IMG/VR virus record: IMGVR_UViG_3300028393_000001
Span: 1 to 64,000 of that record
DNA length: 64,000 bases
From: a virus
Reading direction: 5' to 3' (one strand)
The notes beneath the pieces are model-generated. The model saw only the letters and a program-made list of their open reading frames with translations, had not been told where the DNA came from and did not search any database. Positions 49,328 to 63,760 of this stretch are shown piece by piece (the first letter of the stretch is position 1; every line of letters begins with the position of its first letter). The position numbers were made by a program, and so were the translations under genes.

Positions 49328-50219
49328 TTTTTATTAAATTAATCCAATTATCAATTACCATTTTCCAGTCATAGTTTCTGATTGCGTGCTGCTGAATACT
49401 AACACAGCGTTCCTTAAACTCTCTGGGATTGTTTTTGTAGAATTGTATGGTTTCTACAGACCTCTCAACAAACTCTCGTTCCTCAACTGGAACCTCAACT
49501 GCACCACGTGGGCCAATTCTATTCCAGTGACCTACTGGTGTAGACACAACTAGGCGGCCTGCAGCTCCAGCTTCAAGGGCAGGTAGTCCTGCTCCTTCCC
49601 ACGTTGAGGACACTAATACGCAGCCTACAGTAGGGTAAAATCCTGGCATAGTAACAAAAGAGTTGTGGTAAAGTTGCGCTATTTTTAGGGGCAGTTTTAC
49701 CCTTTCAGCAACTTCGTCAATTAGGTGCGCACGTTTAATGTGGTTGTTATGACTAACCTTGTAGGCACCTGCATAGCCTAAGATTTCTAGTCGATCGGGT
49801 GGGTCTGCACGAAAGCGTTTTACATTCACAGCAATTGGAATAATAGTAGGCACTCTAGAGATGCCCAGTTCCTTAGCCTGTTCCTGCAGCCATTTTGAGA
49901 CTACTCCAAATCCCTTAAAACGGGCAGTTATTAGAATATCCATTTGTTGGTAGTATTCTAGGTCTTCACGGCTGTGAGCAACAGCAATACACTTTTCAGG
50001 AGGCACTCCATAGTGCTCTATACAAAGTCCACGTATACCTGTAGTAGAGGAGATAAAACAATCTATTTGACTGGTTAACTCCTGTACTTCATGTAGGGTA
50101 TATGCACGATTCCACGGCATAATAGCAGAAGTAATGTCATGCTCAGTTAGGTAGTTTGATAGGTCATAGTGTATAACACCATAAGCCCATTCAGGTTCAA
50201 TGTAGAATATTACTTTCAT
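49314..50219 (-). CDS. GT-B fold glycosyltransferase (GT4-like)
   Basis: S..EG.GLP.LEA.A.G..VVSTPVG signature. Likely start MKVIFY at 50219. Confidence 0.8.
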   Translation of the reverse strand: MKVIFYIEPEWAYGVIHYDLSNYLTEHDITSAIMPWNRAYTLHEVQELTSQIDCFISSTTGIRGLCIEHYGVPPEKCIAVAHSREDLEYYQQMDILITARFKGFGVVSKWLQEQAKELGISRVPTIIPIAVNVKRFRADPPDRLEILGYAGAYKVSHNNHIKRAHLIDEVAERVKLPLKIAQLYHNSFVTMPGFYPTVGCVLVSSTWEGAGLPALEAGAAGRLVVSTPVGHWNRIGPRGAVEVPVEEREFVERSVETIQFYKNNPREFKERCVSIQQHAIRNYDWKMVIDNWINLIKNDKH

Positions 50220-54995: not shown

Positions 54996-55322
54996 ATGCC
55001 GCTAACTAAACCACAACCTTACACCGAGGAAGATACCACTACTATAGTTAGTAGGTATCGAGCAGGTGAAACAACGGAAACTATAGCTGAGAGTACTGGT
55101 AGGTCTCACCGATCTATTATTGCAAAACTTTCACGAGAAGGCGTATATGTTTCTAAAACGAAACCTCCGTCAACAAAGGCCACTAAAGTGGAGCTTATAA
55201 CACATATTGCAGAGATGGTAAATATTGATGTCAACGCGATCGCTACCTTAGAGAAGGCAACACATGATGCCTTACAAGAATTACACGATGCAATTCAAAT
55301 TCTTGCAAAGCAGGCAAAATAA
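54996..55322 (+). CDS. T5 A2/D3-like DNA-binding protein, paralog 5
   Basis: YTEE.T....RY, RSIIAKLSREGVY and TK.ELI..IA...I.TLEK. AAGGA RBS. Confidence 0.7.
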   Translation: MPLTKPQPYTEEDTTTIVSRYRAGETTETIAESTGRSHRSIIAKLSREGVYVSKTKPPSTKATKVELITHIAEMVNIDVNAIATLEKATHDALQELHDAIQILAKQAK

Positions 55323-55340: not shown

Positions 55341-55369
55341 TTGACTTTGAGTCCTCAATCCGGTATAAT
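55341..55369 (+). promoter_or_regulatory. sigma70-type promoter of the small-RNA cluster
   Basis: TTGACT-N17-TATAAT. A second promoter TTGAAT-N17-TATAAT lies at 55514-55542. Confidence 0.8.
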
Positions 55370-55376
55370 TTATTTA

Positions 55377-55504
55377 TAAACAGTCGGGAAGCCGATATGC
55401 ACAGGGGGTGCAATTAGCGTTTGTCAACGACACCTTCGACCACTACTCAGGCATTGTATAGGCCTACATCTGCGAAGTTAAGTCATAGTGGCAACGACTG
55501 TTTA
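55377..55504 (+). ncRNA. Putative stem-closed small RNA
   Basis: TAAACAGTCG/CGACTGTTTA closing helix directly after the promoter, with internal hairpins. Confidence 0.55.
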
Positions 55505-55547
55505 ATTTTTTACTTGAATTATATAGTGTTTTACTGTATAATTGATA

Positions 55548-55639
55548 TTTATAAGGGTGGAAAGCGGATGCAATTCACGGCACGCTTCCTTAATTGTGGC
55601 GAATAACTTATCCGAGCCACAGCCCAAAGCCCTCATAAA
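55548..55639 (+). ncRNA. Putative three-way-junction small RNA
   Basis: Closing TTTATAAGGG/CCCTCATAAA with internal GGAAAGCG/CGCTTCC and TGTGGC/GCCACA stems. Confidence 0.5.
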
Positions 55640-55640
55640 C

Positions 55641-55766
55641 AAAAGTTCAGACAGTTCTAGACTGGCCGGATTAGCAACTGTGCGTAGATAACCCACGACT
55701 AGTAGTGCTCGGCCGAGCACCGAAAGCGTCCATGCTACGACATTGTTAATAGTTTGCTGAACTTTT
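55641..55766 (+). ncRNA. Putative stem-closed small RNA
   Basis: AAAAGTTCAG/CTGAACTTTT closing helix with an internal GTGCTC-GGCC-GAGCAC hairpin. Confidence 0.5.
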
Positions 55767-55856
55767 CTTTATGGGTGTTATGTGTTCCCCGCCCATGATA
55801 GGGAGTAACAACTTAATTGCAGGCGAAATCACTACCTGTAGCCCACCGTAATCTTT

Positions 55857-55931
55857 GCTCGATTCGTCTATCGGTTAGGACACCAGCCTTTCACGTTGGT
55901 AAGACCGGTTCGATTCCGGTATCGAGTACCA
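55857..55931 (+). tRNA. tRNA-Glu(TTC)
   Basis: Cloverleaf, anticodon loop CTTTCAC, GTTCGATTC T-loop, encoded CCA. Confidence 0.92.
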
Positions 55932-56077
55932 AATTTCTATGTTGTTCTAGTTTGCTAGAGCACTTAGACACCCAAGATCAGACCAACAGTTAGTAATGAT
56001 AGATTATTTATAATCCGTCGAAACCTGCGGTGGCGTAACAACTGACTGAACTAGGCTGTCGCCTTGACCTAGTTCCT

Positions 56078-56222
56078 ATTATTTAGTGTTATCAGGGTAT
56101 CGTCATAGGACGCTATGACTATGCGGGCCTAACTGTGCGAGGAACAGGTCCTAATATAACTGCTAGTCGCTTGCCAGAGGAAGCACCTTTGTTGGCAAAT
56201 TGGCACGATAGCACTAAATAAT
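56078..56222 (+). ncRNA. Putative stem-closed small RNA
   Basis: 16-bp closing helix ATTATTTAGTGTTATC/GATAGCACTAAATAAT around several hairpins. Confidence 0.55.
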
Positions 56223-56378
56223 GGTAGAGAGTTAATGTTAAAAATGGGTACTCAAAATATCCGTTCTTGAAGGTTCAATTCCTTTAATTTGTAGTCAGGT
56301 GAGAAGCGTGGGCAAAGGTTAGAGATCAACTAACCGCTACAGATAATATGGTTATTAAGTAATAAAAACATAGACTCG

Positions 56379-56474
56379 CCATATATTAGCATTCTGTAAT
56401 TCAAGAGGCAGAGAAGCCCTTTAATATGGGGTGTCGTGTAGATTTCAAGTATCTACCAGAGTGCTAATATATGG
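56379..56474 (+). ncRNA. tRNA-like RNA with an extended acceptor helix
   Basis: 18-bp closing helix around D-like, anticodon-like and T-like arms. No CCA. Confidence 0.5.
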
Positions 56475-56555
56475 GAGAGTACGGGTGATATGTAAGGGTT
56501 TCTCTAAGCCCTGATGATTGGAATTCCTAAGTTAGCCAACAACTAACCCCATAAC

Positions 56556-56658
56556 TTATCCTTCTGATGAGCTTGTGAAATTCAAGCGAAACTCTAACAC
56601 AACCCGCTAGGGTCTTACCCTTTCAACCTAGTTTGAGGCGTTACGAGTCAAGGAATAA
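56556..56658 (+). ncRNA. Type I hammerhead ribozyme
   Basis: Stem I TTATCCTT/AAGGAATAA, core CTGATGA (56564-56570), stem II GCTTG/CAAGC, GAAA (56588-56591), stem III CTCTAAC/GTTA(C)GAG, GTC cleavage triplet (cut after 56649). Confidence 0.9.
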
Positions 56659-56716
56659 AAAAGATAGCCGTGTTGCCACTTATAGTATTGCGTCGCCGCT
56701 GGAACTAATTCCTCTT

Positions 56717-56750
56717 AGCCCTGTAAGGTTTGCCCTTACAGGGCTTTGCT
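56717..56750 (+). terminator. Rho-independent terminator of the small-RNA cluster
   Basis: AGCCCTGTAAGG-TTTGC-CCTTACAGGGCT followed by a T-rich tail. Confidence 0.8.
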
Positions 56751-56836
56751 TTCACTAAAATATGTTACCATAAAAATTTTAGCTGTTGACATAAGATGCC
56801 ATAACTGGTATAATAAGGCAAAATAAAGGTCTACCA

Positions 56837-57733: not shown

Positions 57734-57771
57734 ACTTGATTTAGTAGTTAAATCTATTTATAATAGTGGCT

Positions 57772-58779
57772 ATGTTTAATCAAAATCAAAAACGCGTTGG
57801 CTTTGCGTGTAAAATTCAAAGCCAAGAATCTACAGATTTAGCCAGTTGTAAGACCAAAGGTACTACAATTACATGGCTAAATAGCCAAACTAAACAAGCA
57901 GCCGCAGAGCGACTGTGGACCTTAATGCAAACTAATATAGCAGCCCTTAGTGCACAAGCAGATTGGGTAGCACAGCAACCACCAGGTTTGCGAATGTTTC
58001 GCCTAAGCAGCGACTTACTAACTGCATACTCTCACGATGACTGGATGTGGTTTTACTTTCAATCAGATGTAGTAGACTTCTTAGAACGGAATCTACTAAA
58101 AATCGGTGATAAGTTCCGTGCAGCAGATGTACGTGTTAGCTTTCATCCAGGTCAGTTCTGTGTCTTAGCATCAGATAATCCAGGTGTAGTTGAAAATTCA
58201 ATTACCGAGTTCGAGTACCATGCCGACCTTATCAGGTACATGGGCTATGGTAAAAAGTTTCAAGACTTTAAATGTAATGTACACATTGGCGGTAAACAAG
58301 GCCCCAAAGGTATTATCTCAGCCCTACAACGACTAACACCCGAGGCCCGTAATTGTTTAACTATTGAGAACGCAGAGTTTACCTGGGGTTTAGATGCCTC
58401 ATTAGAACTAGTAGACCACTGTGCCTTAGTCCTAGACATTCATCACCACTGGATTCATTCAGGAGAGTATATTAACCCAGAGGATAGTCGTGTTAAACGA
58501 ATTCAAGAATCTTGGCGCGGTGTCAGACCAGTTATCCACTATTCAGTTAGTAGGGAGGACGTACTCCCAGATCATTGTGGACGAACACGGCCTGACCTCC
58601 GAGAGCTTAAATCAATGGGATTTACAGCAGCTAAACTCCGAGCACACTCAGAGTTCTACTGGAATCAAGATGTAAATCAGTGGGCTACCACTTTCCTAGA
58701 CCACGCCGACATTATGTGCGAGTCTAAGCAGAAAAATACTGCCTCTGAACAGTTTGCCAAAGAAGTAGGTCATGTATAA
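57772..58779 (+). CDS. uvsE: UV damage endonuclease
   Basis: GFACK, MFRLSSD, SFHPGQF.VL.S, N.H.GG, LTIEN, LD.HHH, HYS, AHS and DIMCE.K.K motifs. Confidence 0.9.
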   Translation: MFNQNQKRVGFACKIQSQESTDLASCKTKGTTITWLNSQTKQAAAERLWTLMQTNIAALSAQADWVAQQPPGLRMFRLSSDLLTAYSHDDWMWFYFQSDVVDFLERNLLKIGDKFRAADVRVSFHPGQFCVLASDNPGVVENSITEFEYHADLIRYMGYGKKFQDFKCNVHIGGKQGPKGIISALQRLTPEARNCLTIENAEFTWGLDASLELVDHCALVLDIHHHWIHSGEYINPEDSRVKRIQESWRGVRPVIHYSVSREDVLPDHCGRTRPDLRELKSMGFTAAKLRAHSEFYWNQDVNQWATTFLDHADIMCESKQKNTASEQFAKEVGHV

Positions 58780-63281: not shown

Positions 63282-63378
63282 AAATACACTACTTGCCACT
63301 TAATAAATATATGCGGAGACGTTCCGGACTGTGTCATTCCGCGGGTAACTGGGAGCACCCAGCATAGGTAGTGTGTTT
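63282..63378 (+). ncRNA. Putative stem-closed small RNA
   Basis: 13-bp closing helix AAATACACTACTT/AGGTAGTGTGTTT with a GC-rich structured interior. Confidence 0.5.
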
Positions 63379-63389
63379 TTTATTTTATA

Positions 63390-63678
63390 GTTGTATGAAG
63401 TAGACAGAAAAGTGTCTTGGACGGGGGTGCGAATCCCCCCAGGTCCACCAGAAGTATATTCGACCTCACACGCGGAGAGGTGAAATATAACAGAATATAC
63501 TTCTGATGGGCCTGCATAGTTTCGACAGGGCAAAGAGTAGGAAAATGGACAACTCGGTAGGCGATGACCGTTAATCAAGCAAAACAAGTAAACGCAAACG
63601 ACTCACAGTTCGCATTAGCAGCCTAAACACTGCTTAGGGTTTTGATAAGTTTTCCTCGTAACAGAATAAACTTATCTC
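63390..63678 (+). ncRNA. ssrA: Circularly permuted (two-piece) tmRNA
   Basis: Acceptor piece ending T-arm-CAGGTCC-A-CCA (63450), intervening hairpin, coding piece starting GGGCCTG (63508), G3:U70, tag ANDSQFALAA* (63594-63626). Confidence 0.9.
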
Positions 63679-63684
63679 AAATAC

Positions 63685-63760
63685 CGCAGAGTATGGAAGT
63701 GGTCATCCGTCTGGTCTCATAAGCCTGAAATCGTTGGTTCGAATCCAACCTCTGCATCCA
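63685..63760 (+). tRNA. tRNA-Met(CAT), initiator-like
   Basis: Loop CTCATAA, C1:A72 mismatch, CCA. Confidence 0.88.

Follow-up and report, generated by a model that had tools for sequence, protein, structure and literature searches.

Type I hammerhead ribozymes have been described in bacteria, prophages and phages, and they were proposed to be cutters of long phage transcripts (Perreault et al. 2011, PMC3088659). A 2019 review (PMC6765202) still considers it unclear which biological roles hammerheads play in bacteria and phages. Theta ribozymes, which are minimal HDV-like motifs, cut adjacent to the 3' end of phage tRNAs and are proposed to stand in for host RNases in processing (Kienbeck et al. 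2024, PMC10879173). In the literature searched, the alignments of Perreault et al. 2011 aside, hammerheads next to phage tmRNA or within phage tRNA or RNA arrays were not described.

The window, by which we mean the whole stretch of 64,000 nucleotides that was analysed, comes from the genome of a freshwater T5-like phage. Positions 56559-56654 of its plus strand carry every part of a type I hammerhead, namely the canonical core, its three helices and GUC as the cut site; each pair was checked by script (Table 1). This motif resembles the bacterial and phage hammerheads of Perreault et al. in its canonical 11-nucleotide core, three helices, open stem I, GUC triplet and intergenic phage site. 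Unlike those ribozymes, which lie between protein genes, it belongs to a protein-free RNA operon. Its stem III carries a 56-nucleotide extension, and it stays below the gathering score of Rfam 15, as do all 12 of the other loci of its class that were scanned. With the theta ribozymes it shares a location in an RNA-gene region of a tailed phage and, as predicted from its sequence, the nature of a small self-cleaving ribozyme. In contrast to HDV-like ribozymes, which cut at their own 5' end, the hammerhead would cut near its own 3' end. The tRNA-Glu that ends at 55931 is separated from the hammerhead by ~630 nt and from the cut (56649/50) by ~720 nt, so that the cut is not tRNA-adjacent. With ~630 nt to the only tRNA of the operon, the parallel to theta ribozymes is loose. 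The original prediction, which had likened the locus to tRNA-associated phage ribozymes, had itself pointed out that a different ribozyme class is used.

A scan with the Rfam hammerhead models had been proposed as a check, and Rfam 15 returned no match at its gathering score. In sensitive mode we obtained a partial match to Hammerhead_3 that covers the core alone (15.8 bits, E 5; threshold 48.5). The Rfam hammerhead families form clan CL00010, with RF00163 as the type I model. Short-stem members of the class scored 30.8 and 24.4 bits against the Rfam hammerhead families. Phage hammerheads were also compared among themselves: model R1 was built from 41 other phage hammerheads, leaving out the lineage of the ribozyme studied here. 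R1 recognizes the motif with 61.8 bits and an E value of 3.3e-16 (rough calibration), and this is the sole significant R1 match in the whole genome of 123,962 bp.

The elements follow each other in the order stem I 5' strand, CUGAUGA, stem II hairpin, GAAA, stem III hairpin, UC and stem I 3' strand. This is type I architecture, in which stem I opens to the flanks and stems II and III are closed by loops. All core nucleotides (CUGAUGA, GAAA and GUC) and the three stems were found by script at the positions claimed for them, and core, helices and R1 match together bear out the original reading: the hammerhead is canonical and of type I, and its stem III is enlarged. The A15.1-U16.1 pair is formed by A56591 and U56648, and H17 is C56649, which is unpaired and not G. 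Watson-Crick pairs are present next to the core at 10.1-11.1 (G56571-C56587) and 1.1-2.1 (U56563-A56650). The stems measure 5, 5 and 4+4 bp, with zero non-standard pairs in the R1 alignment. The insert in stem III had been described as ~40 nt with a CTAGG/CCTAG helix; the helix is there, and the segment from 15.2 to 16.2 amounts to 56 nt. A distal extension of stem I by UUAU/AUAA did not survive, given that relatives carry changes at 56556 and 56557 without compensation and that the consensus stem I has 5 bp.

Table 1. Predicted features of the RNA operon and its hammerhead (positions of the window)
Feature	Position	Strand	Basis and remarks
Promoter-like P1, TTGACT-17-TATAAT	55341..55369	+	Consensus scan, 11/12 matches
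Promoter-like P2	55514..55542	+	Consensus scan, 10/12 matches; homologous, with the first RNA unit, to L007, L035, L072
tRNA-Glu (UUC), only tRNA of the unit	55857..55931	+	ARAGORN; Rfam tRNA 55.2 bits
Stem I, 5' strand UCCUU	56559..56563	+	Pairs asserted by script, R1 alignment; unpaired A56558 just 5'
Core CUGAUGA (C3-A9)	56564..56570	+	Sequence reading, R1 alignment; unchanged in L119, L120, L121
Stem II hairpin, GCUUG 56571-75 / CAAGC 56583-87, loop UGAAAUU	56571..56587	+	Reading, script-checked pairs
Core GAAA (G12, A13, A14, A15.1)	56588..56591	+	Reading, R1 alignment
Stem III with 56-nt extension: basal CUC/GAG, bulged C56644, UAAC/GUUA, internal loop, inner helix, apical loop	56592..56647	+	Reading, fold, script
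Stem III inner helix GCUAGG / CCUAGU	56606-11 / 56627-32	+	Pairs script-checked; 15-nt apical loop 56612-56626
U16.1 and C17	56648..56649	+	Predicted scissile bond C56649/A56650, by position in the canonical motif
Stem I, 3' strand AAGGA	56650..56654	+	Reading, R1 alignment, script; conserved A56655 next
Predicted hairpin unit of the 3' product, closed by AGGAAU 56651-56 / AUUCCU 56708-13	56651..56713	+	MFE and centroid fold of 56650-56753
Intrinsic terminator-like hairpin, 12 pairs (7 G-C), U-rich tail	56717..56753	+	Terminator scan; stem kept in L121, loop changed

By its sequence, the ribozyme belongs to a large and known kind, the phage type I hammerheads that Rfam misses. At least 117 viral contigs of IMG/VR contain its core pattern. 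We counted 87 unique copies, namely those with sufficient flank, and 78 of them provide at least 4 bp in stem I together with at least 2 bp in stem III, against a mean of 10.7 (range 7-18) and 7/87 in controls. In alignment A2, 98.3% of the cells are paired and 12 of the 15 pairs show changes on both sides, compared with 25-37% paired cells in slid controls. Stems I and III of A2 had been pre-selected for pairing by script, and stem II was free of such pre-selection. Across the family, stem II reaches 97.6% pairing, and both partners vary in 4 of its 5 pairs. The class recurs in at least 47 lineages and is marked by a stem I of 5 bp with flanking conserved A's, a stem II of 5 bp closed by a UGAAA-type loop and a GUC or GUA cut site. 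In A2, stem I is preceded by an unpaired A in at least 90% of the sequences and followed by an A in at least 70%; the corresponding residues here are A56558 and A56655. These flanking A's and the UGAAAUU loop are candidates for tertiary contacts between stem I and loop II, the loop being an element fixed by the search pattern.

The length of stem III is highly variable across the class. Its stem III region spans 35-146 nt in 18 of the 75 unique members having stems, so that an enlarged stem III is not peculiar to the locus under study. Long inserts are commoner in tRNA-rich loci (4/6 lineages vs 8/41, Fisher p = 0.03), and three of these four lineages are related phages. The T-loop-like word UUCAA occurs in the inserts of 3/13 lineages against 0.8 expected, which is too weak to use. 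When all 47 lineages are considered, a tRNA or tmRNA is found within 300 nt in 5 (2.7 expected) and within 1 kb in 9 (5.2 expected). Nearness to these genes is thus a tendency of the class and no rule. In one lineage of 35 members the ribozyme lies 15-36 nt 3' of a permuted tmRNA. The Methylophilales phage Melnitz has a tmRNA related to that of the tmRNA-hammerhead lineage, yet no R1 match was found downstream of it.

Two cultured Acinetobacter phages, JeffCo (MW176034) and vB_AbaP_Alexa (MT375042), carry ribozymes of the same class, with R1 scores of 57.3 and 56.4 bits. Stem II and its loop are identical to those of the studied ribozyme and the core is near-identical; no feature is annotated under either match. 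The JeffCo ribozyme lies between a helicase gene and tRNA-Arg. These phages differ from ours in genome size (40-43 kb), in host and in their short stem III, with ~10 nt between 15.2 and 16.2. Their ribozyme is followed by a long conserved RNA that is shared with contig L051 and unlike the studied locus: BLAST similarity of JeffCo and Alexa to the window is restricted to 33-37 nt of ribozyme core, and no motifs common to the downstream module and our locus were seen by eye. Since Rfam 15 at its thresholds misses the whole class, phage annotation under-reports such ribozymes. The comparative set assembled here, with at least 47 lineages that include these cultured phages and their unannotated sites, is useful for annotation.

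The closest relatives of the studied locus (L119, L120 and L121, together with L128) come from other metagenome samples, and their surrounding DNA is ~90% identical. None of the four shows a change in the core, in stem II or in the 5 bp of stem I, and their stem III extension is remodelled with compensating changes. With stems I and II invariant, covariation at the level of this lineage is confined to the stem III extension. In L121 and L128, for example, the interruptions of the helix are removed by a 3-nt insertion and 3 substitutions, which leaves 12 perfectly paired bp below the same apical loop. A metagenome scan for the exact 31-nt core returned 3 loci, which are two contigs already in the set and L128, an L121-like sequence, and thus added no diversity. 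The block 56380-56756 stays intact in all relatives, and adjacent units are gained or lost around it.

More distant relatives also have a hammerhead in the homologous RNA operon. Contigs L007, L035 and L072 of group c share the operon promoter and the first RNA unit with our locus (blastn of 55481-55625: E 7e-16 for L007, 3.5e-10 for L072 and 1.5e-9 for L035) and have a hammerhead downstream, ~100 nt past the matched stretch in L007 and L072 and ~190 nt past it in L035. G001 and G002, whose major tail proteins are 48-49% identical, contain hammerheads with a stem III of 61 and 67 nt in tRNA/RNA regions. R1 gave no match in the near-complete relatives G006 (89% complete) and G007 (100%), from which we conclude that the ribozyme is dispensable within the clade. 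Contigs L122-L125, which were found via a neighbouring protein of 154 aa, showed no hammerhead in the DNA examined.

The scans for promoters and terminators confirm that the ribozyme stands at the 3' end of an ORF-poor RNA operon that runs from promoter to terminator. Neither strand of 56000-56632 contains an ORF of at least 40 aa. From the two promoters to the next one (56786), the plus strand has a single terminator-like site, 56717-56745. Its stem starts 67 nt past the cut, in agreement with the predicted distance of ~70 nt. Taken together, motif and context make it likely that 56559-56654 is an active, probably constitutive type I hammerhead that cuts a non-coding transcript of ~1.3 kb at C56649/A56650. 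The operon would be transcribed from its two promoters, 55341 and 55514, and the ribozyme would fold once AAGGA (56650-54) has emerged and would then cut between C56649 and A56650. Metatranscriptome contigs from four runs offer no sequence that spans or ends at 56649/50: two exact X19 contigs of 151 nt lie at 56438-56588 and 56678-56828 with a depth of 2 that may reflect DNA carry-over, and the cover in X20, X22 and X24 stops at ~56433.

Cleavage by hammerheads generates one end with a 2',3'-cyclic phosphate and one with a 5'-OH. Given this chemistry and the topology of the motif, the upstream multi-unit RNA would terminate with the long hairpin of stem III, followed by a one-nucleotide overhang that bears a 2',3'-cyclic phosphate. 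A hairpin-ended terminus of this kind should withstand both attack by 3' exonucleases and polyadenylation. The final ~100 nt, consisting of the hairpin 56651-56713 and the terminator, would be freed as a separate 5'-OH small RNA, with a closing helix formed from the liberated 3' strand of stem I. The ribozyme had originally been thought to trim the 3' end of the polycistron, a description at odds with a topology that leaves a ~95-nt hammerhead tail, ended by stem III, on the upstream RNA. Because the whole type I hammerhead is retained on the 5' product (Perreault et al. 2011, PMC3088659), the cut would detach the last ~100 nt and not cleanly trim the polycistron. No phage-encoded RtcB for healing and ligation of such ends was found; a sub-threshold RNA_ligase match at 71493-71804 scored 25.8 bits against a cut-off of 27.

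Across the class, the job of the ribozyme would be to set the 5' end of the downstream RNA, which would be an mRNA leader in most lineages and a terminal non-coding unit here. A ribosome binding site and ORF start follow within 150 nt of the cut in 26 of 46 lineage representatives, a count that agrees with a role in defining downstream 5' ends. One other lineage, the L067 group, shows the layout of hammerhead, ~52 nt and terminator. A generic scan for H-type pseudoknots in the 3' products gave 32/48 against 29.1 expected. Among 8-mers downstream of the cut, none is common to more than 4 lineages, and the top words are A/T-rich.

These observations leave room for a second reading that is compatible with the first and moves the function to the downstream RNA: instead of being a free-standing processing site, the hammerhead could form, with the helix-closed unit of ~60 nt that follows it, a larger conserved small RNA in which it is the cutting module at the front, and the key product would be the released 5'-OH RNA of ~100 nt with its terminator. 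We regard this as possible, though not as the favoured account. It draws on the intact block 56380-56756 with its changing neighbours, and on the 67 nt past the cut, where L121 differs by one substitution and one 1-nt indel in a region that is ~90% identical overall. In the predicted fold, the closing helix AGGAAU/AUUCCU re-uses the 3' strand of stem I, which cleavage would have freed, and begins 1 nt into the 3' product. Group-c relatives allow an analogous 5-bp pairing between nt 1-5 and 50-54, in which an A-U pair is exchanged for C-G between L076 and L092. However, 23-45% of shuffles also reach 5 consecutive pairs, which is chance level per sequence, and we therefore infer the hand-off helix of the 3' product with reserve. 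A weak resemblance of the form UAGC..GUGU..CCACUU, 14-15 nt past the cut, occurs both in the studied lineage and in group c, but blastn does not report it at E <= 0.01. The dissimilar downstream module of JeffCo, Alexa and L051 likewise speaks against a common small RNA.

More speculative than this is a generalization of the processing-site reading. The hammerhead may be a standing part of a modular, protein-free RNA operon in a freshwater T5-like clade and may serve to make the ends of non-coding RNAs, that is, a stem III-capped 3' end with 2',3'-cyclic phosphate upstream and a 5'-OH small RNA of ~100 nt. The Rfam-invisible class as a whole might then be how phages define 5' ends independently of host RNases, past tmRNAs, in tRNA arrays and in mRNA leaders. 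The locus is a clean natural case for such questions, with a single ribozyme in a 124-kb genome, placed in a purely non-coding operon shortly before the terminator. In this setting, effects of cleavage on RNA stability and small-RNA release are separable from effects on translation.

A switchable ribozyme is improbable. The original prediction had the TTATCC of stem I pair alternatively with GGGTGA at 56483 as a possible switch, and had the ribozyme trim the 3' end of the polycistron, much as tRNA-linked ribozymes do. Regulation of some phage hammerheads was indeed the subject of speculation by Perreault et al. 2011 (PMC3088659), and an alternative pairing of 6 bp, including two G.U pairs, can be drawn. 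Moreover, the hammerhead structure of the isolated 116-nt segment (-19.5 kcal/mol) is not the MFE structure (-23.1 kcal/mol), which hides part of the core. Yet this pairing is not conserved among relatives. Where they change 56556 and 56557 (U to C, or U to C together with U to A), GGGTGA is invariant, so that the alternative helix loses one or two pairs without compensation. The competing 5' hairpin of the MFE fold is weakened by the same changes. The family consensus leaves 56556-58 unpaired, and the cut lies far from the tRNA end at which theta ribozymes act.

Least probable of all is an inactive relic or a chance look-alike that does not cleave in vivo, since the silence of Rfam at gathering score, the absence of the ribozyme from G006 and G007 and the internal loops that break the stem III extension in the studied version are set against an E value of ~3e-16 with an independent family model, catalytic positions that are all canonical and invariant in relatives while flanks and extension vary, and strong covariation in a class of at least 47 lineages.

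Three further candidate features were dropped or assigned to chance. A search of the whole genome for targets of the invariant apical loop gave as its best non-self complement an 11-mer at 49697 on the minus strand, with ~0.3 expected by chance. A second CTGATGA at 56511-17 was rejected as a ribozyme core, as it reads CCGATGA in L121 and is not followed by GAAA. We also rejected a pseudoknot between ACCCUU of the apical loop (56617-22) and the upstream AAGGGU (56494-99), the upstream part being engaged in a hairpin of its own. The closing pair of this local hairpin (56495-98 / 56509-12) covaries among relatives as A-U, G.U and G-C.

The window contains a canonical, conserved type I hammerhead in a non-coding transcription unit, whose terminator begins 67 nt past the predicted cut site. 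Its elements follow one another in order at 56559-56654 (+), each pair having been asserted by a script, and since stem I is open to the flanks the topology is type I. The original prediction of a canonical type I hammerhead holds: on every sequence-level criterion the element agrees with this class and type, and it misses the Rfam score threshold. Cleavage is predicted between C56649 and A56650. From 56000 to 56632 both strands are free of ORFs of 40 aa or longer.

Elements of the hammerhead and neighbouring features in the window
Feature	Position	Strand	Remark
Stem I 5' strand, UCCUU	start of 56559-56654	+	
Core CUGAUGA	directly 3' of stem I 5' strand	+	
Stem II hairpin GCUUG-UGAAAUU-CAAGC	after CUGAUGA	+	
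GAAA, then long stem III hairpin	after stem II	+	
GUC, then stem I 3' strand AAGGA	end of 56559-56654	+	
Promoter-like sites	55341 and 55514		
tRNA-Glu	55857-55931		sole tRNA of this unit
Terminator-like site	56717-56745	+	first on this strand after both promoters
Next consensus promoter	56786		
337-aa ORF with endonuclease match	57766-58779		between RNA operon and main tRNA array

A longer stem I, and a switch in which its 5' strand pairs with an upstream GGGTGA, had also been proposed. Positions 56556 and 56557 vary in relatives without compensation, which favours a 5-bp stem I and argues against the switch. The comparison supports a 5-bp helix with an unpaired A on each side (A56558 and A56655), and the class keeps these residues: A2, an alignment of phage hammerheads, conserves the first in at least 90% and the second in at least 70% of its sequences. 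The isolated segment has a minimum free energy of -23.1 kcal/mol, with a competing 5' hairpin, versus -19.5 for the hammerhead fold; sequence changes in the close relatives L119, L120, L121 and L128 weaken this hairpin. Neither a pseudoknot partner nor a target of the stem III apical loop stood out from chance in searches.

At gathering score, Rfam 15 has no match to the window hammerhead. The cmscan check suggested with the original prediction fell below threshold; the sole match, in sensitive mode, is a circularly permuted partial Hammerhead_3 (15.8 bits, E 5). Because of this silence, relatives were sought with a degenerate pattern (core, closing pair of stem II and UGAAA loop), which matches at least 117 IMG/VR stretches. 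In 78 of the 87 unique copies that have enough flank, 4 or more bp of stem I and 2 or more of stem III are in register, against 7-18 (mean 10.7) when 5' strands were swapped among matches and 7 when the 5' strand was read backwards. Within A2 (41 sequences with short stem III), 98.3% of cells are paired, stems I and III having been pre-selected for pairing by script, and 12 of 15 pairs change on both sides; in stem II, which was not pre-selected, 97.6% of cells are paired and 4 of 5 pairs covary. With the partner strand shifted by 1-3 columns, pairing falls to 25-37%. The covariance model R1, built from A2 with the window and its relatives left out, scores the window hammerhead at 61.8 bits (E 3.3e-16, rough calibration) and has no second significant match over the whole genome. 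Rfam misses this hammerhead class as a whole: none of 12 further class loci was matched at gathering score, and short-stem members score 30.8 and 24.4 bits versus a threshold of 48.5.

The same locus is present at ~90% identity in IMG/VR contigs L119, L120 and L121 and in L128, a metagenome contig. No change separates these relatives from the window in the core, in stem II, in the 5-bp stem I or in the 15-nt apical loop of stem III. The stem III extension of L121 and L128 differs by 3 additional nt and 3 substitutions; through these combined changes, a helix that is interrupted in the window becomes perfect over 12 bp. The RNA operon (55341-56756) is modular, with whole helix-closed units gained or lost at unit boundaries. 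In L119 and L120, 54890-55320 is missing and an additional ~187 nt are present near 56380; 56227-56379 is missing from L121 and L128, and L121 has ~950 extra nt past the terminator. Every one of these relatives keeps block 56380-56756, which comprises ribozyme, final hairpin unit and terminator. A small ORF at 54996-55322, with a weak match to a D5-like regulator, is absent from L119 and L120. Two small hairpins immediately upstream of the ribozyme show compensatory changes among relatives, A-U/G.U/G-C at 56495-56512 and U-A to C-G at 56535-56551 (GUUAG/CUAAC), so the spacer between units is itself structured. In the RNA-library run X24, a 274-nt contig (word depth 90.8) begins at 56231, where one unit has its 5' boundary, and extends into the extra unit of an L119-type relative; a 943-nt contig from run X20 (depth 28) spans 55747-56382. 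These contigs derive from relatives (2 and 28 differing letters, respectively), and DNA carry-over is possible.

The record (123,962 bp, IMG/VR, direct terminal repeats; the window covers its first 64 kb) encodes a major tail protein with 31-36% identity to homologues of T5-like phages (~110-120 kb). R1 hammerheads occur in 3 of 24 records related through this protein (G001, G002, G015) and are absent from two near-complete relatives, G006 and G007; the clade thus has the ribozyme repeatedly but can do without it. The promoter-like site at 55514 and the first RNA unit (55481-55625) are common to contigs L007, L035 and L072 (E 7e-16 to 1.5e-9), where a hammerhead follows the matched stretch by ~100 nt (L007, L072) or ~190 nt (L035). 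These hammerheads have a different stem II and a ~60-nt stem III insert unrelated to that of the window. L092 aligns over the same promoter and unit, and L076 has a hammerhead of this type; we call these five contigs group c. They share a conserved ~70-nt RNA 3' of the cut site (...CCCUAGCGUGUACCACUUGCUGGUGUUAGG...), in which CCUAG/CUAGG pairings may form as alternatives and whose resemblance to the first 35 nt of the window's 3' product is weak.

Across the class, 109 copies with stems represent 47 lineages. Since a ribosome-binding site (RBS) and ORF start lie within 150 nt past the cut in 26 of 46 representatives, the usual setting is an mRNA leader, as Perreault et al. inferred in 2011 for prophage hammerheads (PMC3088659, which places phage hammerheads in the literature since that year). 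A tRNA or tmRNA on the same strand occurs in the retrieved locus of 12 lineages, within 1 kb in 9 (5.2 expected) and within 300 nt in 5 (2.7 expected). A terminator-like site is at most 170 nt away in 6 representatives, at +67 in the window and +52 in the L067 group without an intervening ORF. One lineage of uncultured phages (35 members; L010 2778-3337 (-) and about 35 related IMG/VR loci, including L006, L012, L030, L040, L060, L074 and L104) carries a type I hammerhead on the strand of a two-piece (permuted, alpha-type) tmRNA gene and 15-36 nt downstream of it, with an RBS and ORF ~45 nt past the cut. Its tmRNA shares 75% identity with the one of Methylophilales phage Melnitz, a phage without a hammerhead at that site. 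The cultured Acinetobacter phages JeffCo (MW176034, L132 1195-1252) and vB_AbaP_Alexa (MT375042, L133 1199-1256) carry complete type I hammerheads of this class (R1 57.3 and 56.4 bits) with no annotated feature beneath the match, in JeffCo between a helicase gene and tRNA-Arg. A long conserved non-coding stretch, also present in L051, follows in both; this module has no similarity to the window locus.

The segment between positions 15.2 and 16.2 measures 56 nt in the window. Its minimum among the 75 unique members with stems is 9 nt, and in 18 of them (13 lineages) it is 35-146 nt long, so that an enlarged stem III is a habit of the class; four values of 315-324 nt, from the short-stem tmRNA lineage, are apparently false solutions. 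No convincing motif is common to the inserts. Lineages in which this segment reaches 50 nt or more are found at loci with tRNA genes more often than the others (4/6 versus 8/41, Fisher p = 0.03), a value qualified by three of those four being related phages, as the tail proteins of G001 and G002 are 48-49% identical to that of the window.

Hammerhead cleavage generates 2',3'-cyclic phosphate and 5'-OH ends, which here would fall on C56649 and A56650. Metatranscriptome contigs aligned to the locus neither span this bond nor terminate at it. From the topology, the whole ribozyme would stay on the upstream product, whose 3' end would be the stem III hairpin plus a 1-nt overhang, and ~100 nt downstream would be released. 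The earlier description of the ribozyme as trimming the polycistron at its 3' end thus fits only in part: the clean end would be the 5' end of the last unit. AGGAAU (56651-56) is predicted to re-pair with AUUCCU (56708-13), closing a ~60-nt hairpin just before the terminator, and group-c relatives have an analogous pairing with one A-U/C-G exchange. Because 23-45% of shuffles also give 5 consecutive pairs, we offer this hand-off of the stem I strand to a 3'-product helix as a hypothesis. No RtcB is encoded, and hence no phage-borne route to re-ligate the ends. A 323-aa ORF outside the window (G000:C1:71493-71804) matches Pfam RNA_ligase below threshold (25.8 bits, cut-off 27) and may encode either a DNA or an RNA ligase.

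The suggested parallel to tRNA-associated ribozymes holds loosely. Theta ribozymes are described in PMC10879173 as cleaving at the tRNA 3' end, whereas the window hammerhead cuts ~720 nt from the tRNA. Our literature search found no paper placing hammerheads in phage tRNA, tmRNA or ncRNA operons; the locus would be a tractable one in which to work out the purpose that phage hammerheads serve.

The 337-aa ORF at 57766-58779 matches phrog_8420 'endonuclease' (E 1e-73), with motifs that we take to be UV-damage endonuclease-like (UvdE-like). In X2, a freshwater metagenome run other than the source, 95% of the sampled words of the region are present. A phage-borne permuted tmRNA at 63336-63679 (Rfam tmRNA_permuted 136.8 bits, beta_tmRNA 116.9 bits; tag peptide ANDSQFALAA), adjoined by a tRNA-Met at 63685, points to a betaproteobacterial host.
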